This document shows positions 6,591 to 63,696 of a DNA stretch of 64,000 bases, in pieces. The position numbers and the translations under genes are program-made. Numbering within the stretch: the stretch's first letter is position 1; every line of letters starts with the position of its first letter. Source of the stretch: an uncultured Gammaproteobacteria bacterium (GTDB lineage Bacteria > Patescibacteriota > Patescibacteriia > Magasanikbacterales > UBA922); the NCBI GenBank assembly GCA_965231005.1, contig OZ246405.1, positions 476,223 to 540,222 of the forward strand, in the 5' to 3' direction. Under the pieces are notes generated by a model, which had not been told where the DNA came from, did not search any database, and was given only the letters and a program-made list of their open reading frames with translations.

Positions 6591-6876
6591 ATATGTTCAA
6601 ATAAACGTGTCTAGTATACCATGGCTGGTAGAAACACTCAATTATGGTATAGTAATAATGCCCAGTTGACCTATTGACAATATAGGAAAATATTGCTAAG
6701 ATTAGCTGTTCGTTCATTACAATGGATCAATCTCGGATCATTGTAGAGTGGCCTTGCTTAACTCATTTTTAGTGAATTGAGCAGGCCCACTCTCTTTCCT
6801 GAGTGGAATCCAAAACAAAGATGGGTAGATCTGGGTTCAGATTTGCCTACAGAACTCGAACACAAAGGGGGACATC

Positions 6877-9051
6877 ATGAAAAAGGGAAATACCTTCTGG
6901 GTATGTACACTCTTGTTGGCCGGCTGCCTGGATGGTGAGCTGGACAACGATGTGATCGGCAAGAAGCAGTGCTTGGACACGTTCCAGGCAGAAGCTCTTG
7001 TCCTGGTCGACTGCGAAGAAACTGTCACATCTTGGTGTGGTGACAATTCAGACAACGAGGATTGCAAGAAGTTCCTGTCGTCTTCGGATGCGGGCGCTGA
7101 TGCAAGCGATGCTGCTGAGGACACTGACACCAAGGTGAACAACGACAAGTGCCAGAAACACAGCGACTGTCCAACACCGAGCAACCCGTGCAAAAAAGCC
7201 GCGTGCGGCAAAGACGTGAAGTCCGGCAACATGGTCTGTACCGAGGTGGGGCCTGAAACTTGCGGCAGCGATGCCAATGGTGATGGAACTGCTGATGGAA
7301 AGGCTGAGGATGCCGATGTCACCGAAGATGTTGGTAGCGATGCAGATACTTCGGACTCTGGTAGCGATGCCAAGGACGCAGGTGACACAGAGGACGGCGG
7401 AGACGTTGCCGAAGTCAAAGACGCTGATGATGCAAGTGATGGAGGCGCTGTTGATGCTGCTGATGCTGCCACCGCAGACACGTCTATGTTCGATGCAGGT
7501 GGCCACGATACTGACGCTGGTTCGGACGACGATGGCGATGCAGCAGGAGATGTTGCTGAAGTCAAAGACGCTGATGATGCAAGTGATGGAGGCGCTGTTG
7601 ATGCTGCTGACGCTGCAACCACAGACACGTCCATGTTCGATGCAGATGGTCAAACGGATGCAGGTTCGCACGACGTTGACGCAGGTTCTGTTGACACCAG
7701 TGGTGACACAGCAGATTCTGGCGTAGACACCAAGGCTGACACAACCACGCCTGCGTGCTCGACAAAGGACTGCGACGACAAGAACCCATGTACGACTGAC
7801 TCCTGTGACAAGCTGAAGGGCTGTGTGAACTTGGCAAACACTGCCACGTGTTCGGACGCAAATCCGTGTACGGTTGGCGATGTGTGTGCTGACAAGGTCT
7901 GCAAGCCTGGCAAGCCGAATACCTGTGATGACAAACTCGCATGCACGGTTGATTCTTGTGACAAGCTGAAAGGATGTGTCCACAAGACAGACAACAGCAA
8001 GTGCGACGACGGGAAGAAATGTACCGACGATACGTGTGTTGTCACAACAGGTTGCATTCACAAGCAGAAATCCGGTTGTGCTCCGTGCACCAAGGCGACC
8101 CGAAAGAAGGACTGCGACGACGGAAATGGCTGTACAGCTGACCTCTGCGTTCAGAGCGCTTGCTACCACGAGTCACTGGACCAAAAGCCCTGTGACGATG
8201 GGAGTAAGTGTACGCAGAGTGATGTGTGTAAGGACAAGACCTGCGCCGCAGGAAAGCAACTCGACTGCAACGACAAGAACGCCTGCACGGACGACGTCTG
8301 TGACCCCAAGACCGGCTGTACGCACAAGAACAACACCAACAAGTGTGAGGACGGGAGCAAATGCACCCTTTCTGATGTCTGCAAGGATGGGAAGTGCGTG
8401 CCGGGCAAGAAGCTCGACTGCAACGACAAGAACGCCTGCACGGACGACGCCTGTAACGCCAAGGCCGGCTGCACACACAAGCAGGATGATAACAACACGT
8501 GTGATGACGGCAACAAGTGCACCAGTGATGCATGCGTTGCTGGCAAGTGCGTCAGCAAGCACATTGCCGGCTGCAAGTCGGTCTCGGTTACCCTTACGGT
8601 CGCTTTGAACACCAAGTTTCAGACGTACATGCAAAACAATCAGCAGGGGCCTTGCAACAAAGCCTTGCGCATCTTTATCGAGAAGTGCGAGGCCAAGAAC
8701 GTCTACGGCAACAAAGTGGTCATCATCCCATCCGGGTTTTATGGAGACTACGATAAAGACATCGTCAAGCTGAAGGAGATAGTGTACACACATCCTACAA
8801 AAGCCGAGGCATGGGTGAAGGGGTCTGCAGATTGTCGCATCAACATCTCGGGCTACCTATCGGAGGTCAAAGACGCACTCAAGGATTATAAGTGTTGGGC
8901 GACGGTGAATCCTCCGAAGGGTGTTAACGAGCTGAAGCCCATTCTCACGACTTCTGCCGGCTGCACGTACGAGTATTCCCTTGCAGACACCTGTCTTCCG
9001 AAGGAACTTGGTTCGCTCATCTGGTGCAACAAAAAGCCCATCTGCAAATGA
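6877..9051 (+). CDS. High-GC, Cys-rich secreted lipoprotein with acidic D/A/G-rich region and about 8 Dictyostelium-type CTDC-like Cys repeats
   Basis: Signal peptide with lipobox LLLAGC. Repeats of the form C-D-D-K-N-x-C-T-x-D-x-C-D-x-x-x-G-C-x-H-K alternate with C-x-D-G-x-K-C-T variants. G+C and codon usage differ strongly from the flanks. Confidence 0.75.
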   Translation: MKKGNTFWVCTLLLAGCLDGELDNDVIGKKQCLDTFQAEALVLVDCEETVTSWCGDNSDNEDCKKFLSSSDAGADASDAAEDTDTKVNNDKCQKHSDCPTPSNPCKKAACGKDVKSGNMVCTEVGPETCGSDANGDGTADGKAEDADVTEDVGSDADTSDSGSDAKDAGDTEDGGDVAEVKDADDASDGGAVDAADAATADTSMFDAGGHDTDAGSDDDGDAAGDVAEVKDADDASDGGAVDAADAATTDTSMFDADGQTDAGSHDVDAGSVDTSGDTADSGVDTKADTTTPACSTKDCDDKNPCTTDSCDKLKGCVNLANTATCSDANPCTVGDVCADKVCKPGKPNTCDDKLACTVDSCDKLKGCVHKTDNSKCDDGKKCTDDTCVVTTGCIHKQKSGCAPCTKATRKKDCDDGNGCTADLCVQSACYHESLDQKPCDDGSKCTQSDVCKDKTCAAGKQLDCNDKNACTDDVCDPKTGCTHKNNTNKCEDGSKCTLSDVCKDGKCVPGKKLDCNDKNACTDDACNAKAGCTHKQDDNNTCDDGNKCTSDACVAGKCVSKHIAGCKSVSVTLTVALNTKFQTYMQNNQQGPCNKALRIFIEKCEAKNVYGNKVVIIPSGFYGDYDKDIVKLKEIVYTHPTKAEAWVKGSADCRINISGYLSEVKDALKDYKCWATVNPPKGVNELKPILTTSAGCTYEYSLADTCLPKELGSLIWCNKKPICK
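7395..7650. repeat. About 115-bp near-identical direct tandem duplication inside the lipoprotein gene
   Basis: Two copies of gttgc[ct]gaagtcaaagacgctgatgatgcaagtgatggaggcgctgttgatgctgctga... differ at 6 positions. The differences are not restricted to adenines. Confidence 0.7.
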
Positions 9052-9062
9052 GTTCAACAAAC

Positions 9063-9165
9063 GATCACCACCCTCTCCTCGCGCATGGTGATCTGCTGTG
9101 GGAGGCTCCGAGCCCGCTCTCGGAGCCTCCCCGGCGCGCATCTCCGAATATTACCATATTCGGAG
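9063..9165. terminator. Cluster of three GC-rich hairpins directly after the island gene
   Basis: GATCACCA...TGGTGATC, then GGGAGGCTCCGAG-cccgct-CTCGGAGCCTCCC, then CTCCGAATAT-tacc-ATATTCGGAG. A T-rich tail follows. Coordinates approximate. Confidence 0.4.
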
Positions 9166-9346
9166 CTCCTCAATTTTCATTTTGTTTATAGAAGTGAAAT
9201 TTGTAAGAGCTTAGAGAAAATAGCTGAAAAAACAGGATTTATGAGTCTTGTTTTTTTCATCTTTATTTGCTATGCTACTGATGTTTTTATAGTGATTGAA
9301 GCACAACGCTTATTGTTCCGAGTGAGAAAAATGTAAATGGGCCTGT

Positions 9347-9419
9347 GGGCCTGTAGCTCAGTGGTTAGAGCACAACGCTTATAACGTTGGGGTCGATGGT
9401 TCAATTCCATCCAGGCCTA
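9347..9419 (+). tRNA. tRNA-Ile with anticodon UAU (gene TAT)
   Basis: Manual cloverleaf fold. Acceptor is GGGCCTG/CAGGCCT with a G1-U72 wobble. D-arm GCTC-AGTGGTTA-GAGC, anticodon stem CAACG/CGTTG with loop CTTATAA, T-arm GATGG-TTCAATT-CCATC. No CCA is encoded. Confidence 0.7.
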
Positions 9420-9464
9420 CAGGCAGATTTACATTGTTTTCGAACGACGGAACAACCTATCAGG

Positions 9465-9504
9465 ATAACGTTGGGGTCGATGGTTCAATTCCATCCAGGC
9501 CTAC
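9465..9504 (+). repeat. Exact 40-bp duplicate of the tRNA-Ile 3' half (att-like scar or tRNA pseudogene fragment)
   Basis: ataacgttggggtcgatggttcaattccatccaggcctac at 9381-9420 is repeated 44 bp downstream. A further 14-nt exact match to the anticodon-arm region (agcacaacgcttat) lies upstream at 9300-9313. Confidence 0.85.
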
Positions 9505-9524
9505 GAGCCGATTTGAATTTTTTT

Positions 9525-10496: not shown

Positions 10497-10498
10497 GT

Positions 10499-11568: not shown

Positions 11569-11582
11569 ATGTATAATAAGAA

Positions 11583-11603
11583 CCCCGGGATACCGGGGTT
11601 TTT
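11583..11603 (+). terminator. Rho-independent terminator after rplS
   Basis: CCCCGG-gata-CCGGGG followed by TTTTT. Confidence 0.7.
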
Positions 11604-11750: not shown

Positions 11751-12212
11751 TTAAAAGAGATCAAGGTCACCGAGCTCAAGGATTCTGACTTTGTCTGGCC
11801 GTTCACGTACAAGGTAGGCATCGTAGCCGATGAAGCGTTGTTTGTCCTTCAGGAACAAGGTACGGAGCCACCAGACTTCGTCGTCTATTTGGATCGACCC
11901 GTTTGAATTAACCTTGATTGTCACGCCTTGCTTTGCTGCATTGGTCAGTGAGAAGCGAGGGCCATTTTGGCAGACAATTCCTCCGATTGGATCGCTCGGC
12001 TGAGCAGGATTGCCTTTGGCATCAACGTAGGTGAGATTGGTAGGACAGGAGAAGGCTCTGCTTGGCTCAACTCGGATGATTGGGTTCTGGTACTTACCCG
12101 GTTCAACTCGATAGTAGTGCTCGGTTCCGTCTGCTCCGATCAAGACGATTTTGTAATCGCCAGCCTCTGGGTCAACGGTTAGTCTCCATTGACCAAATTC
12201 GAAGTGTTGCAT
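11751..12212 (-). CDS. Hypothetical protein (153 aa) in a higher-GC islet
   Basis: ORF with SD AAGGGGGT upstream of the MQHFEF start. No recognisable motifs. Confidence 0.5.
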   Translation of the reverse strand: MQHFEFGQWRLTVDPEAGDYKIVLIGADGTEHYYRVEPGKYQNPIIRVEPSRAFSCPTNLTYVDAKGNPAQPSDPIGGIVCQNGPRFSLTNAAKQGVTIKVNSNGSIQIDDEVWWLRTLFLKDKQRFIGYDAYLVRERPDKVRILELGDLDLF

Positions 12213-12362
12213 GGTACCCCCTTTGCTGTGCATTTTTTTATATCATGTTTAAAACAAATGGTCAATGACAAGGATTTCAATATAGTTGTACCATTGACAG
12301 ATTTTCATTTTTGTGATAGGTTAAATCGTCGGCAATACTGCCGCTTTTACATGGAGGCTGCA

Positions 12363-12881
12363 ATGCTCAGCTCTTTGAAAAAAGGAACACTGCGGTTTCT
12401 GTTCCAAGAACTATGCAAAAAAGCTGGTATGCTTCGCAAGTGGATGCCTGCTAACGATGAAACAGCACACATCGTCCGCAAAGTGACTTTGACGTGGGCA
12501 GGAACTCGAGCAGGACAAATTCGTCCAAGCATGCGACATATCGAAATCGAAGCATCCAAACCGTTTACGGTATTGGTTGGGTTCGATCTTTCCATACCTC
12601 TGGTACTGAGCAACGGCTACGATCCATATGGCCAACTTTCTTCAGTCCGCTGTCCTGATGGAATCCACCGTGTTGTTTTCGCAACGTTTGTGGGCAGAGG
12701 ACCAAAGACGTTTGAGCTTCTGGTTCGGTTTGATGTCGATTTGTTCGACCTTGAGGTTGAGGATCTACGAACGCTTTCTTTTGAATACAAAGTAGATGCC
12801 AGATTCGACTTGAGTAACAGTCGAGAACCGCAGGCTGCCTACGAGCCACACAGTTGGCAGAAGTTTGGCTTTTTCAGCTGA
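12363..12881 (+). CDS. Hypothetical protein (173 aa) in a higher-GC islet, divergent from the previous gene
   Basis: GGAGG lies 5 nt upstream of ATG 12363. No recognisable motifs. Confidence 0.5.
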   Translation: MLSSLKKGTLRFLFQELCKKAGMLRKWMPANDETAHIVRKVTLTWAGTRAGQIRPSMRHIEIEASKPFTVLVGFDLSIPLVLSNGYDPYGQLSSVRCPDGIHRVVFATFVGRGPKTFELLVRFDVDLFDLEVEDLRTLSFEYKVDARFDLSNSREPQAAYEPHSWQKFGFFS

Positions 12882-12898
12882 GCACTACACAACAAACG

Positions 12899-12942
12899 GC
12901 CCCAGTACTGAGCGCAGTACTGGGGCCGGAGGATGATTTTTG
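12899..12942. terminator. Strong hairpin (13-bp perfect stem) plus T-run; probable bidirectional terminator between the islet and uvrA
   Basis: GGCCCCAGTACTG-agcg-CAGTACTGGGGCC followed by ...GATTTTTG. Confidence 0.55.
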
Positions 12943-12959
12943 AGCAATATGCTCTTTTT

Positions 12960-15865: not shown

Positions 15866-17272
15866 TTATCTGTATCCGAATTTTCCGTAGAATTTTCTTC
15901 GTTGTGCTGACTGACTTCCTATGTCGACATCGTGAATCAATCCGGCATTGATATTGAGTATGACACCTTTTTTAAGTTCTTCAGCAGTAAGCATGTATTT
16001 TTTATTTTCTGGAACTTTTGCCGTTTGCGAGAATGCTCCATTGTCACCAAGATCAACAATATTATTTCCTATTTTTCCAATCCAGTGGTCTTCGTCGAGA
16101 ATGAAGTCAAAGGCCTCGTTCATATCTAGGTCAAGTACAAATCCTTTGAAGCTTCCTCCAGCACAGTTTTTTACTGCTTTGTCTATTTGTGCATCAGAAG
16201 CTCTTACTGTATAAAAGATTGTTTTTGTCACATCGTCGTTTGCTGTTCCTCCTTGGACTACTTTTTTATGAGATCCATCATCACAAACTGCATATAAATG
16301 TATTGTTTTTACCCACGTCCATGTCCATGATTCTGAAAGTAATTGTCCAGTAAATGAGTCAGCATAGAGATCGCTGTTATATATCATTCCTACAATATTT
16401 GACTTATAGCATCCAGGTGTGTCCTTTGGTCGTTGGAAACACATAAAGGTTTGTCCTGGCGAAGGACCACAGTATGATCCAAGACAGCTTTGCCCTCCAC
16501 TATCTTCTACAATATATTTGCTTCCACAGAGTCCTTCCTTTGCTTCTACATCAAATTTCAATGTTGGATCTTTAGACTTTTTTTCAAGAATTTGTGCTTG
16601 CTCAGCAGCGCTTTTCTCTAAATCTTTTTTGCTTAAAGCAAGAGCAAGTCTTCCTTTTCCTTTCTCACAGAAAAGGGGAGCGTTTTGTTGCGGTTGAATT
16701 AGCCATGTTTGTGGCAATCTAAAATTCACTAAATATGGGTTAACTGTATTTAAAATGAAATAAGAAAGTGACGCTAGAAACATTCCCATGAGCGCACCAG
16801 CTATTTTTTTCTTTGCCGATGTAATTACTTCTGTATTTCCTCCAGAGGTAATCCATCCAAATCCAGCAAGCATAATTACAAGGAGTGCAATGATTCCTGC
16901 AATAACAATGCCATATCTATACATGAGTTGAATGAACTCTCCAACGTTTGCAAAAGAGGTTGTTCCACCAAAACTTGTTTGGGTTTCTGCAACAGTTGAT
17001 GGATAACAAAAACCAATTGGGAATACATCTTTTCCTATCGCTATTTCTGTTCCACCACACGCCTTTTGCGCATCTATCCCTTGGTACAGTGGATTTTGTT
17101 TTGCTTCTTCCTCACTAAGACCAAATGGACCAGACTTTCTAAGTTCAATGCAGTCGTTTAATGTAAAACAGCGGCTGTCTGTTTGTGCCGCTGCAACGTT
17201 TGGAAATATAATACCTATACTTATTGTCAGTACGAAAAGGGGAAGAATTTTTTTGAATAATTGGACAGCCAT
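15866..17272 (-). CDS. Cys-containing secreted or membrane protein with central double-TM hairpin
   Basis: Signal peptide MAVQLFKKILPLFVLTISIGIIFPNVAAAQ. Central YGIVIAGIIALLVIMLAGFGW...IAGALMGMFLASLSYFIL forms a TM-loop-TM unit. I chose the start at the internal Met that abuts the upstream stop; the alternative start at 17338 would overlap dsbA. Confidence 0.5.
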   Translation of the reverse strand: MAVQLFKKILPLFVLTISIGIIFPNVAAAQTDSRCFTLNDCIELRKSGPFGLSEEEAKQNPLYQGIDAQKACGGTEIAIGKDVFPIGFCYPSTVAETQTSFGGTTSFANVGEFIQLMYRYGIVIAGIIALLVIMLAGFGWITSGGNTEVITSAKKKIAGALMGMFLASLSYFILNTVNPYLVNFRLPQTWLIQPQQNAPLFCEKGKGRLALALSKKDLEKSAAEQAQILEKKSKDPTLKFDVEAKEGLCGSKYIVEDSGGQSCLGSYCGPSPGQTFMCFQRPKDTPGCYKSNIVGMIYNSDLYADSFTGQLLSESWTWTWVKTIHLYAVCDDGSHKKVVQGGTANDDVTKTIFYTVRASDAQIDKAVKNCAGGSFKGFVLDLDMNEAFDFILDEDHWIGKIGNNIVDLGDNGAFSQTAKVPENKKYMLTAEELKKGVILNINAGLIHDVDIGSQSAQRRKFYGKFGYR

Positions 17273-17273
17273 A

Positions 17274-18264: not shown

Positions 18265-18939
18265 TTACGACGCACGCTTGTTCAAGAGTCTGTCCATGTC
18301 GTGGATTGCCTTTTTGAATGAGACAATGTCTGCTTCACTGATGTCGTCGCCAATGTCAGCTTCTCGCACTACTTGGCGCATGATCCGGAGGACTTCCTGT
18401 GGAGGATTCTGCAGAGCAGACTCAGCACCGAGCTTCTTTCTCAGACTCTCTTGGATGAAGTAGCAAAGGAGATATGTTGAAATACCTCTCATGTTCAAGT
18501 CACTGGAACTTGCGAACATGAGATATTCCAACATCTGCATGGCCTTTTTCAGGTCTTCGACGCTTTTCCAGGTTTTGTATGCCGACCAGTACAGCTTGCC
18601 AAGTTCCATGACAGCGATCTTATCGGCCCTCAGCACCTCATGTTCCAGTGGGTTCGGCGCTGCAAGCACCTGTACATCAATGGAATTCAGTGCCTCCCGG
18701 ATTTTTGCCTTTTGTGCAGCTTTTTCGACTTTGCTTCCTTTTGCTTCTGCGTTCCGTAGCGCTCTGTTAGCCTTTTCAACAATCCTGAATACGTCCTGGA
18801 TCGATTTGATTGTCAGATCGGTGAAAGGGAACAGAAAGACAGTGGCATCGTTGCCATCTCTCAAGTCAGGCTGGGTTGTGCCGCTCACAGGCGGGAGCGG
18901 AATCACATTGCCGCCCTTCCCAGATGTACACTTACTCAT
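18265..18939 (-). CDS. Hypothetical protein (225 aa), higher-GC gene
   Basis: SD GAGGAGGTG upstream of the MSKCTSG start. A hairpin terminator TTCGCAGTAGT...CTACTGCGAA lies just downstream at about 18218-18246. Confidence 0.5.
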   Translation of the reverse strand: MSKCTSGKGGNVIPLPPVSGTTQPDLRDGNDATVFLFPFTDLTIKSIQDVFRIVEKANRALRNAEAKGSKVEKAAQKAKIREALNSIDVQVLAAPNPLEHEVLRADKIAVMELGKLYWSAYKTWKSVEDLKKAMQMLEYLMFASSSDLNMRGISTYLLCYFIQESLRKKLGAESALQNPPQEVLRIMRQVVREADIGDDISEADIVSFKKAIHDMDRLLNKRAS

Positions 18940-34255: not shown

Positions 34256-34630
34256 ATGAGTAATTATTTGAGGTTAGAAGATTTAGAAGTATATCGTATT
34301 TCACTTGAGTACGGTAAACTCGGGTGGAATATTTATTCTGGATTTAATTGGAGGATCCAGAAGGTTATGGGAGACCAAATGATCAGAAGTGTTGATTCAG
34401 TTGCAGCGAATATAGCTGAGGGATATGGAAGGTTTCATTATTTAGACAAAAATAAGTTTTACTACAACGCACGAGGGTCTCTACTAGAATCTTCTCATTG
34501 GTTTACTGTGATGGAGCAGAGAGAGTTGATAGATAAGCAAGTATTTGATAAATCGAAAGATTTTTTTTCCGCAATATTGGTCATGCTTAACAAATTGATC
34601 AATTCACAGTTGAAAAGGAAAAACAAGTAA
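34256..34630 (+). CDS. Four-helix-bundle protein (23S rRNA intervening-sequence protein family)
   Basis: AANIAEGYGR motif. 124-aa helical product. Confidence 0.6.
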   Translation: MSNYLRLEDLEVYRISLEYGKLGWNIYSGFNWRIQKVMGDQMIRSVDSVAANIAEGYGRFHYLDKNKFYYNARGSLLESSHWFTVMEQRELIDKQVFDKSKDFFSAILVMLNKLINSQLKRKNK

Positions 34631-47200: not shown

Positions 47201-47403
47201 AAGCGCTGGGTGTAAAAGCAGATGCAAATGTATGTGTGTTTAAACCAAAAGTTCAGGCGCTTGATTACTGGGGTTGGTGTAATGGAACATGTGCTGGTGG
47301 AAAAGGTTGTTATAATAATGTTGCTGGTATTCAAGACCAATGTGATAAAGATAACGCAGAACCGTGGACTGAATATAATGGAAGTATTATTATTATTCCG
47401 TAA
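38248..47403 (+). CDS. Giant (3051 aa) Cys-rich secreted or surface protein
   Basis: Single uninterrupted ORF. N-terminal signal or anchor FLSIFLGVFLAVEIVGFTFLAKPAHAAG. Cysteines occur throughout and there are no further TM helices. Confidence 0.7.
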   Translation: MLFNTKHKKTKSVFLSIFLGVFLAVEIVGFTFLAKPAHAAGLPVVDAVASGQRASSSVWDTILKTLYATGLSALMTGVSYMTRKIAYDTAVYAATGFKGQKPLIFTDRWDEYLATEGGNAAATAIDQFGESFGLNLCGFPNVRLQAQVQIGLRTLYDQDQFGVSGPQPTCSWQQVSELWDAENYTKLGDSALNVFSDAISVRESDFGITLAAIEKIDRFQAVQQQAKFLERLEGKGYKAVKGLISDNIRTPANIVEEETKVLTAKHQGEITYSQISGIYGSGALEILPQAASVFINTFLSQGLNNLLTEGLVPDKAPSESGDGVGSYYAESIVSRKKATEQAFSYLFTAVPKKQLGAYDALAELAACPKNSTGLNNCVIDEGLKQAITRAKQGEALTIEEAMAPNVGLLNGDWPLISPLRIADNTDLDCRLKGYCYSNIQKLRKLRVLPTGFEIAALRSDPDKPWTLRQVVEGYNNCDFLDPPKNTKVKYNPKKPFCRLIDPNWIIRLPETRCESTVFGPELVTDGSPDRREECVDISTCITEGPNGECIGDEYYGYCTREQNIWHIGQESCPAQFNTCKTFVDAGGSARSYLSRTIDYGACNIDTVGCRAYSLERKNVGQAASPWKHSDEVNLELKKLGRNQVMYFNSKVANFSCQGGEGCNAFYQAEETDTGYKKPAQPKPIYLKKAPDYLGCYDTNPTQLGIQWPKTKSDLAALPGHPACNSFANVCLPEEVECQQYNAVASGNVVSGIIGTKFACDEVCVGYDAFKQEASSFEKDKYPLYFIPDNARSFMEINNLSCSAAEVGCEEFTNLNTEDLEYYTNIKYCEQPDGNNEKAFYSWEGDQATGFVLKTHKLLQIDQEEFSYINDNAKPALGASSVAKVFPIGSPAYAEDSKKKLEAQYAICNETLYKNLVNNVPNAPKADADCRALYDDDGKVFYRLLANTVVVSDQCQDLRRTTATFEVDTDIASKQACDNKAGVWQNNQCQRCMGGGEFKNGSCVYAAITGVGQSTSCTPAANGCRKYVGSTGNNTGDIFKDEFEPNTPDDINKAVEGYAATGGNGVAKMATESIQVGLHSLQVDAKTLTRTVPVASILPGEDDLYEISFWAKGGPLALTIELKGEGNVSYTLTQNNQTGQASSASVGNEWRQYKYGPVRIDKEVKKPTLVFTSKVNGIGSTYFLDNLRFTRITDTYYLVKDSWKTPEGYDVPLICDAKPNDPFPGTALGCQAYTFTNSDGNTQQAFATGFEKLCRQDAIGCEALYDTYNTVEIPFAEDAHIYKLECSNTNTPVTKNTTCELTFGGKNLDDGSCTIGVGETTCLVDHITLEKATDVDKVGNGKVVKSTIIVPEDTPESDPIFLTNRDEFTCQGTQQGCQRVALEEQKVKATSTTYSFPSEATVLNNPDTYLDNNNSILCSQDTVGCSQFGGSAGTSFFKDPLLTGNRICDYRKDVEKDGELVSGWFRSNSEGNVPCYDKFLEESGVYGINSNKSTFYEGFVGACPAQFDQCTELVDRYDISEEFPKGKPYYSLFNAQLLKSIDECGGQASLKEGCVLFDRTEDPKKSYNASATYDASEQKGFISVPPISSAIQGNDSNVILKVGRDRACSEWLACKTAVTKKDDKGVPQRLCYDFRACDEVSGGECANWKDYGFGDELLTDEKYVTRDASWHGEDYTGYSLLNKYQITYYDYIVTGTPFMVYKMHPDYFADNEQFDCIENGQAKTDWSVCGFAPNKGRCFDGQCIQPVAAPFPIDADENSPGKVLKALGDNTQCKAYPEKTAPFPQSVLKQVATEKKNEAKKQNPKAQSGQDSMIPLVEDNNVIKKQVRYEFPYRKAGFSQVGICQGKDDCSCSYTKVEYGSPLDVDYWSAKQKQEKSIPPGQCVGGDNAGDPCSEDSHCFSGTCGKITRQEDHLGLTGFCLERDLSRPIDGGEDLNGDKKFACLTWLPIDVNPAGLDNYNLFQGAGYSPSLDAVTEKKQIGGEVMCRRSTAIGAGPYDKALLPVFKDTSGTYFNKQYPICYDDSSDPNQNLPVQNLCGAPQPFANDSDKFNNKGAVIQYSCDSSDHSDFNRYRMVACNATGNKRKDFYEAILSWARKDGFGLVGSGQNVVVLRTETGHESKLTSKNEGKDIYPTKLIPIDEWDGMTKKTDGSCFTNQPQAGGTEGKLIVRHPPRLWNEEQGKFKQIKYFTQGPNAEVWHHEGNYYQDEKGCKSFDGKLNVSGVAAYPGEVFYDEQRTKDYLYRSPYELVMNRRDLNKVFFVPTLFPGGAEGNNPLLLSKQVYIDFAELDARLDKYTKGEAQTLSMKNSVKGFPNDSVLDEDDGEYKYKNAGDNFNGKFIDAEVLFAPEDSSQLAPGGFKPTVNKDNAVYTYVVTPSQDNDLNKKHYELYEGSGSDPKFAKAAKDSRNYIDRRYVLVYHNDHNAKKTKAGMNNKLRNLEWIRNNLDKNTGIPKADPFTEKVVCDKRLAFPTDDKSDETDEDRYGGNNWFAIGMDFNKNGEFLGYVSRWCMQTNNNALEDGGINMAVIAQVKDQCVDYVQVSDTTKDGVEDVPNKAWTNRVWIDAPWQAGISGRLLPDVDIRPFGSTELTGKDLQVYKKEKPNEINVDVVKALSERRITNPKVDGYPFVCMNPLIKGFGFANINAFGSDNACGGVELGVGSNSKSGIKNPEKEFNDASTRLYNLFARSYKVVQRAGDVGFANKSQWNTWDGTDYAKDSKKWLAGSNVIGGIEDRGNKVGKDLSPPVIYSLNPQTCFRETGATCGVGEKDNITVSEKNGTRTDYNGDEISDEDPQGIGLHEAIIRNKNFGAVVNFYAAADDNRMPLRRVMMNWDDGSFTNDETFGRYKNHKPYCDTAEAAQKDKKDPDNRKPDVGLCMRKSDTIPSLMTCQEDKDCPVVAEGQEPYECAKADAGQGELKLPGYIKKGVSDHGTYQEPRFGNAPRACEDNFFEFRHGYTCPKDFQQKVNQTAFGGKHGYVLSPDTIARLEALGVKADANVCVFKPKVQALDYWGWCNGTCAGGKGCYNNVAGIQDQCDKDNAEPWTEYNGSIIIIP

Positions 47404-47530
47404 ACCCCACCCCTGTGTCTGACCTGAAGGTCAGACCGCCCTCCCCTTGGCAGGGGAGGGAACGGTATAAACCCTCCCCCTGCTAAGGGGGAGGTGGCCA
47501 AAGGCCGGAGGGGGTTAACTACAAAACAGT
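47404..47530. repeat. Cluster of GC-rich palindromic (REP-like) units immediately after the giant gene stop
   Basis: GTCTGACC-tgaa-GGTCAGAC, CCCTCCCC-ttggca-GGGGAGGG and CCTCCCCC-tgctaa-GGGGGAGG are adjacent. Composition differs abruptly from the AT-rich gene. Confidence 0.5.
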
Positions 47531-47664: not shown

Positions 47665-48243
47665 CTACTCGTAGATGTGAGAGGTCTCGGTCAGGAGTTC
47701 GCCGTCGGCGCTGTATCGCTGCTGGTAGAGCAGACCGTCGTCCTTCTTCTCGATGCAGGCGTCTTCGTTGATCTCGTCGATGTGCAGACAGGCTTTGGAC
47801 TCAGCATGGTCAGGATCGACTTCGATGGTCATCTTGTTGAAGAGCAGGTGTTTGCCCACGAGGTTGACGTAGCACTTGCCGTTTTCGACTTTGCAGCTGA
47901 TCTCGCCCTTACCGAGCTTGGAGCCCTTGCGGCGGAACTTGCCGTCCATGGCCAGGATCGCATCCGAGCAGGTGACCATCGGGTCCGTGACCTCAATGGC
48001 CTCGCACACGCCGTCGGACTGACGACAGGTCTTGCCCATGGGGCAGCCCACGGTCTCATCGCGGCAGTCGGTCGTCTTGGTCGTGTCGGGCTTCGTGGTG
48101 TCGTCGGGGGTCGTCTTGGTCAGATCGGTCTTGGCGACATCGGTCGAAGTCGGGTTGGTGTTGCTGGACTCATCGGCGCTGCAGCCGAACGTGAACGTCG
48201 CGACCACCAGGGCCGCAACGAGAGAGGTCATGACCTTGTACAT
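47665..48243 (-). CDS. High-GC small secreted lipoprotein, Thr/Asp/Lys-rich linker plus Cys-containing domain
   Basis: SD GAAGGAGA upstream of MYKVMTSLVAALVVATFTFGC. Start placed at the internal Met, as the upstream extension lacks an RBS. G+C by eye is in the high 50s %. Confidence 0.6.
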   Translation of the reverse strand: MYKVMTSLVAALVVATFTFGCSADESSNTNPTSTDVAKTDLTKTTPDDTTKPDTTKTTDCRDETVGCPMGKTCRQSDGVCEAIEVTDPMVTCSDAILAMDGKFRRKGSKLGKGEISCKVENGKCYVNLVGKHLLFNKMTIEVDPDHAESKACLHIDEINEDACIEKKDDGLLYQQRYSADGELLTETSHIYE

Positions 48244-48738: not shown

Positions 48739-49686
48739 ATGAGAACGTTCATTACACTACTAGCTTTTCTGCTTTTCTGTGCCTGTCAGTCCACAGACGA
48801 GGCTTCAGGATCATCAGACGGCTCTGGCAAGTCCGGTCCAACAGTCCACCAGGCGTACAAGCCCCTGTTCAACTGGGGGCCGAAGCGGATGAAGAATTAT
48901 GGCGACAAGCCATTATCTGAATTGGATACTGCGCTCGAATATAAATACGACGAGCATGGACGCCTCATCAGATTTTTTGGTGAGTTTGATTTTCCAACCA
49001 AGACGTACTATCCAATTCTTTTTTTCTATGGAAAGAATGGTCTTCTTTCCAGAGTTGAAGGCAAAGGGCATTTCGAATATACGTACCAATACAACGATCA
49101 ACTTCAATTGGTTAGGCTTGTATTTTCCTATTATGATTCAGATACAGGAAAATACAGTAACGTAGCGAGCGTTTTGGTTTACACATACGATGAAAATGGT
49201 CGTCTCGCAACTGTTATTGATTATGAGTCTAGCGAAAACTCAGAGCCAGAAGAGAAAGCTGTTTACTCTTGGAATTCTGCAACTGGAGGGCTTGCTCGCG
49301 TAGAGGAGTACAGATATTCAAAAGGTACATGGAAAACCTACAGTGTTGACGAGTACACGTATGAGTCTGGGAAACTCAAGTCACTCAAGAGTAAGTTCGA
49401 AAATTTTACTAGGTCCTGGGTATACACTTGGCGCCCTGATGGATTTTTGGATACAAGGACATTCGATGATAAAGATCAATCAAGATACATCTATCACGAT
49501 GGCAAGTTAGTAAAGGAGTGTCGGTACGTCTGGAAAAACGACAAGTGGAACGACAAGTCTGACTGTAGAGAAATGGAGCATTCTGAGGAAGGATCATCAT
49601 ATACATTTGAGCGTGATTGGTGGCCATCAATGCCTGGGATAAATTCATACATGCTCCTACACTACGGCCACCTGTCCTGGAAGTAG
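48739..49686 (+). CDS. Lipoprotein with YD-type (RHS-like) repeats
   Basis: SD AAGGAGGT 5 nt upstream of MRTFITLLAFLLFCAC. Repeated YKYDEHGRL, YTYDENGRL and YTYESGKL motifs. Confidence 0.65.
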   Translation: MRTFITLLAFLLFCACQSTDEASGSSDGSGKSGPTVHQAYKPLFNWGPKRMKNYGDKPLSELDTALEYKYDEHGRLIRFFGEFDFPTKTYYPILFFYGKNGLLSRVEGKGHFEYTYQYNDQLQLVRLVFSYYDSDTGKYSNVASVLVYTYDENGRLATVIDYESSENSEPEEKAVYSWNSATGGLARVEEYRYSKGTWKTYSVDEYTYESGKLKSLKSKFENFTRSWVYTWRPDGFLDTRTFDDKDQSRYIYHDGKLVKECRYVWKNDKWNDKSDCREMEHSEEGSSYTFERDWWPSMPGINSYMLLHYGHLSWK

Positions 49687-58447: not shown

Positions 58448-58918
58448 ATGCAACAATTTGTTGTTCCACAATTTATTGATGTTGAAGATAAAATTTTTGG
58501 TCCAATTACCACAAGACAATTTTTAATTTTGCTCGTTGGGAGTTTAATTATTTTTGTTGGATACAGACTTGCAGATTTTACATTATTTATTTTTATTGTG
58601 GCTATTATTGGGGGTCTTTCACTAATATTTGCGTTTGTAAAAATAAATGGACAAGATTTTCATTATTTTTTGTTAAATATTTTTCAGACAATGCGGCGTC
58701 CTGGACTTCGAGTATGGAGAAAAGCATATACAAAAGACGAATTAAATTTTTTGCGCAAACGTGACATGGAAATAGAGGTAGTCGAGGTACAAACAAGAAA
58801 GAAAGCAAAGCAATCACATATTCGAGATCTTTCATTAATTGTAAACACTGGTGGATATTATCGACCACTCGATGGAATTACACCCCAAGAAAAAACAACA
58901 CTCCCTCCACTTCATTAG
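58448..58918 (+). CDS. PrgI/VirB3-like small membrane protein
   Basis: The N-terminus FIDVEDKIFGPITTRQFLILLVGSLIIF followed by a second TM helix resembles the PrgI/TcpE family. It sits immediately upstream of VirB4. Confidence 0.5.
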   Translation: MQQFVVPQFIDVEDKIFGPITTRQFLILLVGSLIIFVGYRLADFTLFIFIVAIIGGLSLIFAFVKINGQDFHYFLLNIFQTMRRPGLRVWRKAYTKDELNFLRKRDMEIEVVEVQTRKKAKQSHIRDLSLIVNTGGYYRPLDGITPQEKTTLPPLH

Positions 58919-58976
58919 TTTGGGAGTTGTGTTCATGGTATAATGAATTAACAAAAGATTAATATCTGTTCTGATT

Positions 58977-59687
58977 ATGGCAAAGGAAAAGAAACAAAAA
59001 AAAGGACAAACAAAAAAGAAAAAGAAAAAACCAAGTCGTCCATCTACACAGACATATTTGCCGATTGCAGAAATTCGAGACGGTGTTTTAGTGTTGAAAG
59101 ATGGAACACTCCGAAAAGTAATGCTTACATCGAGTATTAATTTTGCCCTAAAGTCTGAAGATGAACAAAACGCACTTATTTCTTCGTATGTTGGCTTTTT
59201 AAATTCCTTAGATTTTCCATTGCAGATTGTTATTCAGTCTCGCAAATTACAGACGCGACCGTATTTAGACAAATTGGTTGCTGCAGAAAAAGAGCAACAA
59301 AATGAGTTGCTTCGAGTGCAGATTGCAGATTACAGGGCATTTATTGAAGAACTCGTTGAGATTGGTCAAATTATGACAAAGCGTTTTTATGTTGTTGTAT
59401 CATATGATCCTGCATCAAATAAGAAAAAAGGATTTTTTACACGCATGAAAGAAGTTATAAAACCAGCATCTGCCATTCGTTTAAAACAATCACGATTTAA
59501 TCAACGAAAAGAAGATTTGGATTTACGCGTCCGACAAGTTTCTGGTGGATTGCAAAGTATTGGTTTGCAAGTTGTTGAACTAGACACACAAGCATTGATT
59601 GAATTATTTTATTCAACCTATAATCCAGATATTTCTTTTGATCAGGGATTAGGAAAAATAGAAGATCTCAGAGTTGAGAATCTCTAA
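58977..59687 (+). CDS. VirB4/TraC N-terminal domain encoded as a separate ORF
   Basis: LPIAEIRDGVLVLKDGTLRKVMLTSSINFALKSEDEQNALISSYVGFLNSL is the typical VirB4 N-domain. A stop falls at 59685-59687, and the next ORF begins 13 nt later in the +1 frame. Confidence 0.6.
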   Translation: MAKEKKQKKGQTKKKKKKPSRPSTQTYLPIAEIRDGVLVLKDGTLRKVMLTSSINFALKSEDEQNALISSYVGFLNSLDFPLQIVIQSRKLQTRPYLDKLVAAEKEQQNELLRVQIADYRAFIEELVEIGQIMTKRFYVVVSYDPASNKKKGFFTRMKEVIKPASAIRLKQSRFNQRKEDLDLRVRQVSGGLQSIGLQVVELDTQALIELFYSTYNPDISFDQGLGKIEDLRVENL

Positions 59688-59700
59688 TATTACGTAGTGT

Positions 59701-61575
59701 ATGCCATTTAAGCCAGAATCCGCAGGAGCGGGCAGACAACGTTCCGGAAAACTGCAGAAGAAGCAGGGAAAGGAACAAGAATTGAAAAAAGAATTGATTT
59801 CGATTGAAGAAGAACGAACCTACCGAGAGGGAACTGTTGCTATCCGTGACTTGATCGCTCCATCTACATTTCGTGTTGAATCAAACTTTATCCAGCTTGG
59901 TGATGTTTTTTTGCGCACCATTTTTGTTATTAGTTATCCACGGTATATTTCTGTTGGATGGAGTTCTCCACTCCTCAACTTAAATATGACAATGGATGTT
60001 TCAATGTTTTTCTATCCTGTTCCATCGCCAATTATTTTAAAACAATTAAAAAAGAAGGTTGGAGCACTGCAAGCACAGCTCAGTGCAGATGCAGAAAAAG
60101 GTGCGCCACGAGATCCAATTCGTGAAACGGCTCTTCGTGACATTGAACAGCTTCGTGACGATCTTACCCAAGGAATTGAACATTTTTTCCAATTTGGATT
60201 TTATGTCACTATTTATGCAAAAGAAAAAGAACAGCTCGAGCAAATAAGTGAAGATATTGAAAATATTTTTGGTTCAAAACTTATTTATACAAAAAATGTT
60301 TTGTTCCAGGCTGAACAAGGATTTACATCAACACTGCCACTTGGAATAGATGAACTTATGGTTGGATTTAATATGAATTCTTCACCAATTGCATCATCGT
60401 TTCCATTTATGTCTTCAGAACTTACCAGTGACGATGGTATTTTGTATGGAGTAAATAGACATAATAATAGTTTGATATTATTTGATAGATTTACCATGCA
60501 AAATGCAAATATGGTTGTGTTTGCTACATCTGGTGCTGGTAAATCATACGCAGTGAAACTCGAAGTGCTTCGAAGTCTGATGCTTGGAACAGAAGTGATT
60601 ATTATTGATCCAGAAATGGAATATGTGCACCTTACAGAAGCGGTTGGTGGAACATTTGTGAATATTTCTCTTGCATCTGAAAGTAAAGTAAACCCATTTG
60701 ACTTGCCACGACCAGTTGGTCAGCAGATTTCAACAGAAGATGTTATTCGTAGTGCAGTTATTACAGTAAAAGGAATGCTTCGGATTATGTTTGGCAAGAT
60801 TACACCGCAAGAAGATTCTATTTTGGATCGTGCACTCCTTGAAACATATGCAAAAAAAGATATTACACCAGCAAGTGATTTGGCAACAGTTGAATCTCCA
60901 ATTATGCAAGACTTGCTTGATGTGCTCGAAGGAATGGATGGTGCAAGTACCCTTGCATTAAAATTGAGAAAATATACAGAAGGGACATTTGCAGGATTGT
61001 TCAATGCACCAACAAATGTGAATATGGATAATCAATTGGTTGTATTTAGTGTGCGTGATCTAGAAGATGAGTTACGTCCAATGGCAATTTACTCTCTGAT
61101 TAGTTATATTTGGAATATTGTCCGAAGTGAACGAAAAAAACGTATTCTCATTATTGATGAGGCGTGGTGGCTTATGACGCACGAAGATAGTGCAAAGTTT
61201 GTCTATGCACTTGTAAAACGATGCAGAAAATATTATCTTGGAATTACAACAATTACACAAGATGTTAATGACTTTTTGCGATCTCAGTATGGTCAGGCAA
61301 TTGTGACAAATTCATCCATGCAGTTGCTGTTGAAACAATCTCCATCTGCCATTGAAACAATTCAAAAAACATTCCTTTTAACCGAAGGAGAAAAATTCTT
61401 ACTTCTTGAAAGTGCTGTTGGAGAAGGAATTTTCTTTGCGGGATTGAAACATGCAGCGATTAAAGTTGTTGCATCGTACACAGAAGACCAACTTATTACG
61501 TCAGATCCACAGCAACTTCTTGAAATAGAAAAAGCAAAAGCAGAATATGAAGCAGAGATTGCAGGACGGGGGTAA
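59701..61575 (+). CDS. virB4: VirB4/TraC/PrgJ-like type IV secretion ATPase (central and C-terminal domains)
   Basis: Walker A SGAGKSY and Walker B LIIDEAWW are present. The conserved segment GDVFLRTIFVISYPRYISVGW is also found. Confidence 0.85.
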   Translation: MPFKPESAGAGRQRSGKLQKKQGKEQELKKELISIEEERTYREGTVAIRDLIAPSTFRVESNFIQLGDVFLRTIFVISYPRYISVGWSSPLLNLNMTMDVSMFFYPVPSPIILKQLKKKVGALQAQLSADAEKGAPRDPIRETALRDIEQLRDDLTQGIEHFFQFGFYVTIYAKEKEQLEQISEDIENIFGSKLIYTKNVLFQAEQGFTSTLPLGIDELMVGFNMNSSPIASSFPFMSSELTSDDGILYGVNRHNNSLILFDRFTMQNANMVVFATSGAGKSYAVKLEVLRSLMLGTEVIIIDPEMEYVHLTEAVGGTFVNISLASESKVNPFDLPRPVGQQISTEDVIRSAVITVKGMLRIMFGKITPQEDSILDRALLETYAKKDITPASDLATVESPIMQDLLDVLEGMDGASTLALKLRKYTEGTFAGLFNAPTNVNMDNQLVVFSVRDLEDELRPMAIYSLISYIWNIVRSERKKRILIIDEAWWLMTHEDSAKFVYALVKRCRKYYLGITTITQDVNDFLRSQYGQAIVTNSSMQLLLKQSPSAIETIQKTFLLTEGEKFLLLESAVGEGIFFAGLKHAAIKVVASYTEDQLITSDPQQLLEIEKAKAEYEAEIAGRG

Positions 61576-62276: not shown

Positions 62277-62280
62277 AAAA

Positions 62281-62421: not shown

Positions 62422-62423
62422 AT

Positions 62424-63128
62424 ATGAAGGGGGGAATAAAAAGAATTTTTGAATTGTTGAAAGATTATATCTTTCCGCTATTTTGTCTGGGTTGTAAAAA
62501 AGAAGGAATGTGGGTGTGCAAAGATTGTTTGAATCAGATTGAAACTGTTGGGATATTTCAGTGTCCTGTTTGTGAAAAAGAAAATAAGAATGGACGATGT
62601 TGTGATAATTGTAAAACATCGTCTTTTTTGTTTTGGCATATTGCTGCGGGAAAATATAATGAAGATGAATTATTGGGAAAAATTATTTATCAACTTAAAT
62701 ATCAGTACGTCGAAGAAATGGGGGAGTATGTTTCTTTTTTTATAGAATCTTTTTTAGAAGCAAGAAAAAAAGATTTTTCTTCATTTGATTATATTATCCC
62801 AGTTCCATTGCATAAACGGCGTTTTGCAGAAAGGGGATTTAATCAAGCTGAACTGATTGCAAAGATATTTTCAGAACAAACAAACGTCCCTATTCTTGAT
62901 TGCTTAAAACGACAACGATATACAAAACAGCAAGCACGATTGGATCGTGATAAACGTCAAAAAAATCTTGATAATGCATTTTTGCTTCATTCTCTTGAAC
63001 TAAAAAACAAAAAAATCATCCTTGTAGATGATGTGTTTACAACAGGGAGCACAATGCAAAGTTGTGCAAGGGTTTTAAAAGATGCTGGAGCAGGGGAGGT
63101 TGTTGGATTCACCTTAGCAAGAGGGTAA
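62424..63128 (+). CDS. comFC: ComF-family phosphoribosyltransferase with N-terminal double zinc-ribbon
   Basis: CLGC..C..C, CPVC and CCDNC cysteine pairs, plus the PRTase motif IILVDDVFTTGST. I chose ATG 62424; the longer ORF from TTG 62406 would extend into the repeat. Confidence 0.8.
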   Translation: MKGGIKRIFELLKDYIFPLFCLGCKKEGMWVCKDCLNQIETVGIFQCPVCEKENKNGRCCDNCKTSSFLFWHIAAGKYNEDELLGKIIYQLKYQYVEEMGEYVSFFIESFLEARKKDFSSFDYIIPVPLHKRRFAERGFNQAELIAKIFSEQTNVPILDCLKRQRYTKQQARLDRDKRQKNLDNAFLLHSLELKNKKIILVDDVFTTGSTMQSCARVLKDAGAGEVVGFTLARG

Positions 63129-63205
63129 TAAAAAACATGAACCCCGCGACGTGATAGTGCGAGGCCATGCCTTGCGTTCGCGTGCGGGGTGGTGAGTACG
63201 TTCTC

Positions 63206-63598
63206 CTAATTGGTTTCACGTTGTTCTTTTTGTTCTTTGTGAAGTCTTCTGACGAGCTCAGCGAGCTGAGATTTTTCGCAGGCGTGGCTACATCCTCGTT
63301 TGGTCATTTCATTCCTCAGGTTTTCCAAACCTGAAATCGCCACCATCGGTCCTGTGAATCCACGTCTTTTTCGAAGGTTTTTGATCAGCCAGAAGGAGTC
63401 AACGGTCAAGCTGTTGATGAGTCCGTCGACAGCAACGAGCCAGGGATTTTTGTGCGTCTCATCGAGCGCGTGGCTTGCCTCGCGAGCATCAACGGCGATC
63501 ACAACAGTGAAATCACCTGAAAGCGCGTCTCTGAAACGCGCATGCCATCCGCCTTCATCCTCTAGAATGAGAACAATGGGTTTGCGTTGTGTTGGCAT
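63206..63598 (-). CDS. High-GC stand-alone receiver (CheY-like REC) domain protein
   Basis: SD GGAGGT upstream of MPTQRKPIVLILEDE. Acidic pocket EDE, VAVDG and AISG beta-strand motifs are present. The 220-aa ORF extension beyond this start overlaps the tRNA genes and is rejected. Confidence 0.45.
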   Translation of the reverse strand: MPTQRKPIVLILEDEGGWHARFRDALSGDFTVVIAVDAREASHALDETHKNPWLVAVDGLINSLTVDSFWLIKNLRKRRGFTGPMVAISGLENLRNEMTKRGCSHACEKSQLAELVRRLHKEQKEQRETN

Positions 63599-63696
63599 GT
63601 CTACCTCCGAAAGAGTGTACTGGTAATCAGTACAATCATACCGAAGGAAGAAATTTACAATATGAAGATAGCAAAATATGAGTAAAAAGTCAATAA

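Follow-up and report, generated by a model that had tools for sequence, protein, structure and literature searches.

GC-rich, Shine-Dalgarno-led islets in a low-GC Magasanikbacteria-type chromosome and their possible origins

The stretch of DNA considered here, 64,000 nucleotides of contig OZ246405.1 (assembly GCA_965231005.1, positions 476,223 to 540,222; hereafter, the window), is part of a chromosome with an overall GC content of 36% and contains five short GC-rich islets. Compositional islets are usually read as recent imports with a fading foreign signature, and the first-pass annotation of the window took a similar course, proposing repeated acquisition from one class of high-GC donor, possibly a host or partner of the organism. 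The question raised by the locus is whether the islets are the residue of such imports or whether their composition has another history. The best overall explanation, which can be given a probability of about 55%, is that the islets represent accessory cassettes that differ in origin, and that in one family, represented by gene 2a of the second islet, the foreign-looking signature persists within a gene pool of the lineage itself.

Composition and translation signals of the islets

Measured in 500-nt windows, GC content is about 0.31–0.40 outside the islets and peaks at all five places marked by the first-pass annotation, reaching 0.52–0.56 at 7.0–9.0 kb, 0.44–0.47 at 11.5–13.0 kb, 0.49 at 18.5–19.0 kb, 0.52–0.54 at 47.5–48.5 kb and 0.47–0.48 at 63–64 kb. 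Re-derivation of the genes and start codons resolved the five islets into seven genes, described below with their GC content at third codon positions (GC3) and Shine-Dalgarno (SD) sites. Islet 1 contains a plus-strand gene (6877..9051) encoding a 724-aa putative lipoprotein (MKKGNTFWVCTLLLAGC...; GC 0.54, GC3 about 0.61–0.62, SD AAAGGGGGA). Islet 2 consists of gene 2a (11751..12212, minus strand; 153 aa, all-β, predicted to be cytoplasmic; GC3 0.53–0.55; SD AAAGGGGGTACC-ATG) and gene 2b (12363..12881, plus strand; 172 aa from the SD-preceded ATG, GGAGGctgcaATG; GC3 about 0.42–0.44). The gene of islet 3 (18265..18939, minus strand; GC3 0.56; SD GACGAGGAGGTGCAC-ATG) encodes a helical protein of 224 aa, and islet 4 comprises two genes for putative lipoproteins, 4a (47665..48243, minus strand; 192 aa, MYKVMTSLVAALVVATFTFGC...; GC 0.60, GC3 0.83–0.86; SD GAGAAGGAGACGACC-ATG) and 4b (48739..49686, plus strand; 315 aa; GC3 0.43–0.47; SD CAAAGGAGGTCCAC-ATG); the genes of islets 3 and 4 are orphan open reading frames (ORFs). 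Islet 5 contains a minus-strand gene (63206..63598; GC 0.50, GC3 0.47; SD TCGGAGGTAGAC-ATG) for a 130-aa stand-alone, divergent CheY-like receiver. The suggestion that all these proteins are exported or regulatory is applicable to part of the set: the proteins of islets 1, 4a and 4b have lipoprotein-type N-termini and the protein of islet 5 is receiver-like, but for the products of genes 2a, 2b and 3, neither export nor a regulatory role can be demonstrated.

The islets are discrete intergenic units that look foreign at synonymous sites. Synonymous GC3 (0.61, 0.53, 0.42, 0.56, 0.86, 0.43 and 0.47 for islets 1, 2a, 2b, 3, 4a, 4b and 5, respectively) lies z = +6 to +18 away from the backbone (mean 0.200, sd 0.036, n = 34 genes; Mann–Whitney p = 2e-5), and the codon adaptation index (CAI), calculated relative to backbone usage, deviates by z = −6 to −14. 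The islet proteins re-encoded with backbone codons would have 0.36–0.40 GC versus the observed 0.43–0.60. Together with the synonymous GC3 values, this calculation led to the rejection of amino-acid bias as the sole cause of the high GC, an explanation that the first-pass annotation had named among those that would refute its own reading. Structural RNAs were also rejected as a source of high GC, since the Rfam search revealed three tRNAs only in the window.

The second component of the signature concerns translation initiation. With corrected starts, AGGAGG, GGAGG or GGGGG is found 5–7 nt before the ATG in all seven islet genes, in contrast to a weak SD-like motif at most in about 3 of the 34 backbone genes (Fisher p = 5e-6), which bears out the initial impression of strong ribosome-binding sites in the islets and mostly none around them. 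Backbone leaders are A/T-rich (e.g., ...ATACT-ATG and ...TAATATT-ATG), and SD sites are also nearly absent in the related genomes L005, L086 and L087, described below, and in other loci. The near-absence of SD sites in backbone genes points to a lineage-wide SD-independent initiation. If SD-less initiation needs unstructured AU-rich leaders, a GC-rich structured mRNA would require an SD site, and the coupling between GC-richness and SD sites is thus probably mechanistic. In Bacteroidota, translation is SD-independent, the anti-SD sequence is occluded, and rpsU has a strong SD site. The case considered here is like that of Bacteroidota, as far as leader sequences alone can tell, in the genome-wide lack of SD sites accompanied by a small set of strong-SD genes, but it concerns a different lineage, and the SD-led genes are GC-rich and accessory, not ribosomal and autoregulatory. 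The strongest outlier among the backbone genes (34256-34630) encodes a 124-aa 'four helix bundle protein' (TIGR02436, 4e-20) and has the SD site AAGGGGGGT and synonymous GC3 of 0.34; this gene could be a weak sixth islet.

The islet units share a general plan, in which a candidate promoter is followed by a 5′ untranslated region (UTR; GC-rich in 4a), an SD site, a GC-rich coding sequence and, mostly, a hairpin. Islets 1, 2a, 2b, 3 and 5 are preceded by AT-rich spacers with sigma-70 promoter candidates (TTGACA-17-(TG)nTAnnnT), and those of 4a and 4b are weaker or far upstream. The consensus scan placed the candidate of islet 1 at 6674..6702 on the plus strand (TTGACA-17-TAAGAT, with TG upstream), from which a 5′ UTR of about 170 nt would follow, and the AT-rich divergent region between 2a and 2b (12213..12362) contains the candidates TTGACC-17-TATAAA for 2a and TTGACA-17-TAGGTT for 2b. 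Five perfect hairpins (stem of at least 8 bp with at least 6 GC pairs) were found in the window, all of them intergenic and all at the borders of islets 1, 2 and 4. They include a 13-bp stem 3′ of the islet 1 gene (9100-9131, plus strand), a hairpin at 11581-11600, a 14-bp stem where the 3′ ends of 2b and uvrA face each other (12897-12928), and two hairpins (47439-47460 and 47473-47494) of the GC-rich cluster at 47403..47520, which directly follows the stop codon of a gene encoding a 3051-aa protein and forms the left border of islet 4. The 3′ ends of islets 3, 4a and 5 have imperfect hairpins only. No hairpin sequences common to different islets or to other loci were found.

Given the metagenomic source of the sequence and the abrupt GC switch at the islet borders, a chimeric assembly or the presence of contaminating high-GC reads in the contig might be suspected. 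However, the window DNA was assembled separately from the runs ERR2281800 and ERR2281801 (PRJEB17505; ENA, with Logan contigs for parts), and the separate assemblies L001, L002 and L119 reproduce the junctions between islets 1–4 and the backbone, with at least 99.98% identity of L001 and L002 to the window; a chimera was rejected on these grounds. The promoter spacers within the islets are AT-rich like the host genome, and the same islet type and gene family occur in many unrelated contigs from other studies, so an artefact has a negligible probability. An identical copy of the islet 1 protein (P0001) is encoded on a 1.23-Mb NCBI contig, although an exact-match query with this protein gave no result.

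Genomic context and absence from relatives

The sequence of the backbone identifies it as belonging to Candidatus Magasanikbacteria of the Patescibacteria, or Candidate Phyla Radiation (CPR). Among 185,579 species genomes, the best UvrA matches were found in L004 (68% identity) and then in L005, named 'Candidatus Magasanikiibacteriota' (63%), and the matches ranking below them belonged to other Patescibacteria. L004 is a metagenome-assembled genome (MAG) mislabelled as Gammaproteobacteria.

Searches of the window proteins against L004 and L005 with tblastn indicated a conserved gene order. The order in L005 is DsbA, the orthologue of the 490-aa ORF (15866-17338), UvrA, about 210 nt of spacer, L19, gmk, rluD and tRNA-Ile(TAT), with an HD-domain protein gene about 200 nt further on; in L004, DsbA is followed after about 244 nt by the orthologue of window ORF 20285-21019. 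At the orthologous positions, L005 thus has neither islet 1 nor islet 2, and L004 does not have islet 3; each comparison involves one distant relative. Deviant composition and, for islets 1–3, absence from syntenic relatives are features of horizontally acquired islets, and for these three islets, gain appears to be more parsimonious than loss, which falls short of proof. A 338-aa Ala/Glu/Lys-rich protein is encoded at 19098-20114 by a gene with GC3 of 0.20 and no SD site, which is also absent at the syntenic position in L004; therefore, accessory genes are not all GC-rich.

Two islets adjoin tRNA genes, in agreement with the first-pass annotation. The gene of tRNA-Ile(TAT) (9347..9420, plus strand) begins 215 nt after the islet 1 hairpin, and the insertion of islet 1 is delimited by it on the right; its position is conserved in L005. 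The gene of tRNA-Ser(TGA) (63727..63814, minus strand) has the same orientation as the islet 5 gene and precedes it by 128 nt. The tRNA-Ile gene is accompanied by a 23-nt copy of its 5′ half (9291-9313), 34 nt upstream, and by a 60-nt copy, with 90% identity, of its 3′ half and trailer (9465-9524), 45 nt downstream. The break in each of the two copies is at the anticodon loop, and L005 has one clean tRNA-Ile(TAT) there, without copies. They look like scars of integrase-type recombination, and islet 1 is not bracketed by them. The longest rluD ORF (from 9387) traverses half-tRNA copies, and the true start of rluD is probably the ATG at 9525.

Prophage or integrative-element remnants that had entered at tRNA genes would account for the location of islets 1 and 5 and for both half-tRNA-Ile copies. 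This origin is nonetheless very improbable. Domain scans revealed no integrase or transposase in or beside any islet, and a search for flanking direct repeats or target-site duplications returned AT-rich chance matches only. With neither an integrase nor att repeats around them, the islets do not qualify as tRNA-targeted integrative elements; nor are they recognisable as prophage remnants, since the islets contain no phage gene, the PHROG search gave no matches, and IMG/VR, queried with 2a, islet 3 and islet 5, contained nothing related to these three. The half-tRNA copies themselves are within 45 nt of the tRNA, and islets 2, 3 and 4 are not located at tRNAs. A PADLOC search of the islet proteins yielded two weak matches only (E about 0.003–0.007), both for islet 3, which is not enough to count it as a defence gene.

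Gene pools of the islets and the 2a locus

The islet that best agrees with import from a high-GC organism is islet 1. Its protein contains acidic repeats and at least six Dicty_CTDC cysteine-rich repeats and clearly belongs to this family (PF00526, 1.4e-31; 108.3 bits with a cut-off of 27, in six stretches). The 1,191 non-self matches are confined to the repeat region and part of the C-terminus, with 35–47% identity over 36–56% of the query, and the named ones are almost always 'Deltaproteobacteria bacterium' or 'cysteine-rich repeat protein'. The islet 1 protein resembles Dicty_CTDC 'cysteine-rich repeat' surface proteins (Myxococcota, Deltaproteobacteria-type) in possessing at least six repeats and a lipoprotein signal, and it differs from them in its length (724 aa versus about 1000–1270 aa), its own acidic N-terminal repeats and its location in a CPR genome. 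The relatives P0002, P0003 and P0030 are encoded on contigs with 62–68% GC, where the GC content of the gene equals that of the flanks and where the neighbouring genes are of a non-CPR, free-living Gram-negative type (porin O/P, CotH, PHB depolymerase, PQQ). These features fit an import from a high-GC Gram-negative gene pool, and this import would not be recent, because the best non-self match is only 35–47% identical over 36–56% of the length. A fourth relative is located on L085 (GCA_016234725.1, 'Ca. Azambacteria'), a contig of mosaic composition, where four Dicty_CTDC genes with 59–67% GC are separated by spacers with 35–48% GC; L085 may have been mis-binned, or else it represents a further CPR genome with islets of this kind.

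Gene 2a has a different history. Its closest homologues (55–57% identity) were found in Candidatus Magasanikbacteria MAGs, i.e., in the lineage of the backbone, an outcome that the first-pass annotation had regarded as incompatible with its donor hypothesis. In two of these MAGs, L086 (42% GC) and L087 (37% GC), the homologues have GC contents of 0.59 and 0.53 and GC3 of 0.85 and 0.70, respectively, and the neighbouring genes have GC3 of 0.26–0.45 and no SD sites. A metagenome scan with the family alignment found 27 loci. The close homologues (at least 46% identity) exceed their flanks by 0.09 to 0.23 in GC content at 12 of 13 low-GC loci, have GC3 of 0.63–0.92 and are nearly all preceded by an SD-like motif; distant homologues (37–44% identity), with different gene neighbourhoods, are unremarkable in composition and are not preceded by SD sites. 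Overall, GC-rich and SD-led 2a genes occur in about a dozen low-GC genomes.

Ten loci from about nine distinct genomes share a conserved arrangement, with FtsW, epimerases, 2a, a PGI-like gene and four glycosyltransferases. The flanks of this locus range from 0.27 to 0.56 in GC content, and the GC3 of 2a exceeds that of the adjacent PGI-like gene by 0.36 on average. Candidate promoters of the form TTGACA-17-TGnTAnnnT and SD sites are conserved upstream of most 2a homologues, and similar sequences precede most islets of the window. At conserved residues, about 49% of codons are identical, and third positions are still C- or G-ending. The GC3 excess of the window copy (0.53–0.55 versus 0.20 for the genome) is of the same size as in the orthologues, so no special recent import from a high-GC organism is needed for it; moreover, since GC-rich and SD-led 2a genes occupy a conserved locus in many genomes, their make-up is not the fading mark of a recent import. 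The 2a genes were not found together with 2b or other islet genes of the window in the related loci.

Comparison of 2a with its neighbours indicated that the locus and its alleles do not share a single history. Pairwise identities of 2a and of the neighbouring gene are moderately correlated (Mantel rho = 0.60, p about 0.01). Between the closely related genomes of contigs L099 and L100, 2a has a synonymous divergence (dS) of 1.72 and a non-synonymous divergence (dN) of 0.26, whereas dS of the adjacent PGI-like gene is 0.14; in some other pairs, dS of 2a is below that of the neighbouring gene. Alignment of L099:5880-6480 with L100:470-1080 showed a near-identical promoter and 3′ flank enclosing a segment that is about 25% divergent from the 5′ UTR to near the 2a stop, so that the extent of the replacement roughly matches that of the transcribed region. 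Further upstream than the promoter, the sequences are wholly different. The locus is thus conserved, and the discordance of dS indicates that its alleles have been replaced by recombination within the lineage.

The same observations bear on the idea that the islet genes are native to the lineage and have been kept GC-rich and SD-led by selection, for mRNA stability or as a separate SD-dependent regime, without any transfer. Gene 2a does keep one locus, and its divergence in part parallels that of its neighbour; despite turnover at synonymous sites, its codons remain C- or G-ending, the GC3 excess is similar in many genomes including that of the window, and the ordinary composition and lack of SD sites in the distant homologues imply that the GC-rich state was derived and then kept. 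The L099/L100 pair, with dS of 1.72 against 0.14, reflects allele replacement and not pure vertical descent, however; islets 1–3 are missing in syntenic relatives, the window copy of 2a occupies a non-canonical site, and the non-coding 5′ UTRs are GC-rich as well, which codon-level selection alone is insufficient to explain. Purely native ancestry must be considered quite unlikely.

For 2b and islet 5, the sole detectable relatives were found in low-GC, SD-poor genomes that look CPR-like. The 2b family consists of proteins of about 160 aa, usually with an N-terminal transmembrane helix and a C-terminal PHxWQKFGFF motif. A distant 2b homologue on the CPR-like contig L117 (31% GC) has ordinary GC content, yet it possesses one of the few AGGAG sites of that contig. 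The islet 5 protein had no Pfam match at E ≤ 0.01; the motifs LILEDE, VAVDG, AISG and a late Lys were recognised by eye, and its phmmer relatives mostly gave sub-threshold matches to PF00072, with P0216 above the threshold (40.6 bits). Its nearest homologue, P0167 (40% identity), is encoded on L116, a contig from the same sample (ERR2281800), within a GC-rich islet (L116:1-1000; GC 0.50–0.58, at least 1 kb) in a backbone with GC3 of 0.20–0.29; the islet contains, in addition to the CheY-like gene, a partial, uncharacterised gene of 184 aa. L116 may come from the genome of the window or from a close relative. Small ORFs at L086:17073-17516 and L005:1373-1654 (minus strand), with GC3 of 0.67 and 0.56 and the SD-like sites AAGGGGGGAACC-ATG and AGAGAGGGAAACATC-ATG, respectively, are also present in these low-GC Magasanikbacteria loci; they are unrelated to the islet genes of the window and have no Pfam matches. 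Taken together with the L116 islet, these ORFs indicate that the phenomenon is wider than the window.

The remaining islet genes offer little for comparison. No scoring homologue of 4a was found among 5.8 billion proteins, and a concatenated query of five islet proteins against 1.84 billion representatives revealed self copies only of islet 3 and 4b; 4b contains weak YD/RHS-like repeats, and a weak YD repeat in 4b was the only NCBIfam match of the islet proteins.

Against this background, we can weigh the proposal that all islets are recent, independent and not yet ameliorated acquisitions from a single class of unrelated high-GC organisms, perhaps including the host or partner of a symbiont with a reduced genome. 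GC3, CAI and SD sites all look foreign, syntenic relatives do not have islets 1–3, Gram-negative genomes with 62–68% GC are the native setting of the islet 1 family, islets 1 and 5 abut tRNAs, and the tRNA-Ile locus contains half-tRNA scars. But a GC3 range of 0.42–0.86 is too wide for one class, and the relatives lead in different directions, from islet 1 to high-GC Gram-negatives outside the CPR, from 2a to Magasanikbacteria inside the lineage, and from 2b and 5 to low-GC CPR-like contigs. In addition, a GC-rich 2a at the conserved locus is shared by genomes that diverged so deeply that dS of the neighbouring gene is saturated, so that amelioration is long overdue, and the best match of islet 1 is too distant for a recent transfer. 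No evidence connects an islet with a host or partner, and islets 3, 4a and 4b have no non-self homologues. Of the original proposal, acquisition from a high-GC donor thus survives for islet 1, whose relatives reside in 62–68% GC non-CPR contigs, and no single donor class emerges; in its full form, the proposal is unlikely.

The explanation preferred here, accessory cassettes of mixed origin, would run as follows. Seven small accessory transcription units would occupy intergenic gaps of an otherwise syntenic, largely SD-less chromosome with 36% GC, having been gained by horizontal exchange from more than one source. Islet 1 would derive from Gram-negative bacteria with high GC content, the 2a family would circulate within Magasanikbacteria, with alleles swapped by recombination at one conserved locus, and their sequence relationships would place 2a, and probably also 2b and islet 5, in a gene pool internal to the Patescibacteria. 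The GC-rich, SD-led make-up would then be a persistent property of this gene pool and not an un-ameliorated residue of recent import from a host. A Patescibacteria-internal pool agrees with the finding that horizontal gene transfer (HGT) into groundwater Patescibacteria is frequent and mostly intra-phylum, with 83% of detected events (PMC12455944).

Several points weigh against this explanation. A pool shared by genomes with 27–45% GC should drift AT-ward, yet it stays at 50–60% GC. Gain and loss are not polarised, as there is one informative relative per islet and both relatives are distant (63–68% UvrA identity), and the synteny evidence covers islets 1–3, without islets 4 and 5. The window copy of 2a is located outside the canonical locus. 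Three of the seven genes (3, 4a and 4b) have no homologues beyond self copies that would point to a source; the contigs with relatives of 2b and 5, L117 and L116, were judged CPR-like solely by their GC content, gene content and use of SD sites. None of the islets is bracketed by an integrase, a transposase, a target-site duplication or an att pair that would point to a mechanism of insertion, and the link between SD sites and mRNA structure is one that we infer.

Three causes may be considered for the persistently high GC of 2a. Selection on a GC-rich mRNA is one possibility, and continual re-supply from higher-GC relatives, such as L103 (56–59% GC, same synteny), is another. GC-biased gene conversion at a recombination hotspot is plausible because of the allele-replacement signal at the 2a locus, although its magnitude would be far beyond reported cases. 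In bacteria, GC-biased gene conversion, as treated by Lassalle et al. in 2015, is said to change GC3 by a few percent. The 2a locus is like the hotspots of such conversion in that a frequently recombining segment is richer in GC3 than its surroundings, but the excess amounts to +0.2 to +0.5 and extends into the 5′ UTR.

A stronger version of the persistent-pool idea, which must be regarded as tentative and on balance doubtful, is that small accessory genes of Magasanikbacteria-type Patescibacteria are actively kept GC-rich and SD-led in the long term, by selection or by locus-specific GC-biased recombination or mutation. They would form a second, SD-dependent 'dialect', which may be related to the stability of mRNA or used under certain conditions, and would be exchanged within the lineage as promoter-to-stop cassettes. 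A bolder form, in which the cassettes are built for expression in a GC-rich, SD-using host cell, has no positive support.

Compared with known systems, the islets are most similar to the atypical-GC islets of the Lawrence–Ochman type and to the genomic islands of Patescibacteria (PMC12455944), with which they share deviant GC3 and codon usage, intergenic sites between conserved genes, absence from syntenic relatives, occasional tRNA adjacency and accessory or uncharacterised proteins. Unlike such HGT islets, the units of the window consist of one or two genes without an integrase or repeats, at least one family is un-ameliorated across deeply diverged genomes, and the SD site is a class feature that the host genome does not have. 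Gene 2a also recalls replacement loci with swapped divergent alleles, such as O-antigen loci, in its conserved flanks and promoter and its divergent interior, but here the replaced part is one small gene for a predicted cytoplasmic protein, and all alleles have GC contents far above every recipient genome.

What appears to be new is a gene family, perhaps a class, that is stably GC-rich and SD-led inside AT-rich, SD-poor CPR genomes while being exchanged at a conserved locus; 2a represents at least one such family. It keeps GC3 0.2–0.5 above that of the genome and an SD site otherwise unused by the genome, at a conserved locus in about nine low-GC CPR genomes, with alleles swapped meanwhile. 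Literature searches found no reports on the project PRJEB17505 or on GC content and HGT in Magasanikbacteria, and none relevant to Patescibacteria and SD sites. If the pattern is general, CPR bacteria would be a case in which composition is a misleading guide to HGT and donors, and 'host-like' genes a misleading guide to hosts; a local force, either mRNA selection or GC-biased conversion, would counteract AT drift in reduced genomes; and one cell might use two modes of translation initiation. A gene set in which these suggestions can be tested is provided by the 2a family, the CheY-like single genes and the lipoproteins.

Other features of the window

The gene content of the window includes uvrA, rluD, gmk, rplS, a DsbA-like gene and a branched-chain amino-acid ABC transporter. 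Genes resembling those of type IV secretion or conjugation systems (a PrgI-family protein and a VirB4/TraG-type ATPase) are located at 58448-61575 and have the composition of the backbone.

Three giant ORFs with backbone GC3 are located at 21774-27866 (2030 aa), 38248-47403 (3051 aa) and 50282-55288 (1668 aa). The Pfam scan revealed no match for the 1668-aa product, and the 3051-aa product is cysteine-rich, with a signal or transmembrane segment at the N-terminus. The region 4331-5059 is repetitive, with an AT skew of −0.60, and contains long ORFs on both strands, one of which would encode tandem KRKLLLKREKL...NLQNVKLQ repeats without a Pfam match. Local GC bumps at 22–24 kb and at 57 kb originate from amino-acid composition, as reflected in high GC content at second codon positions (GC2), and not from GC3.

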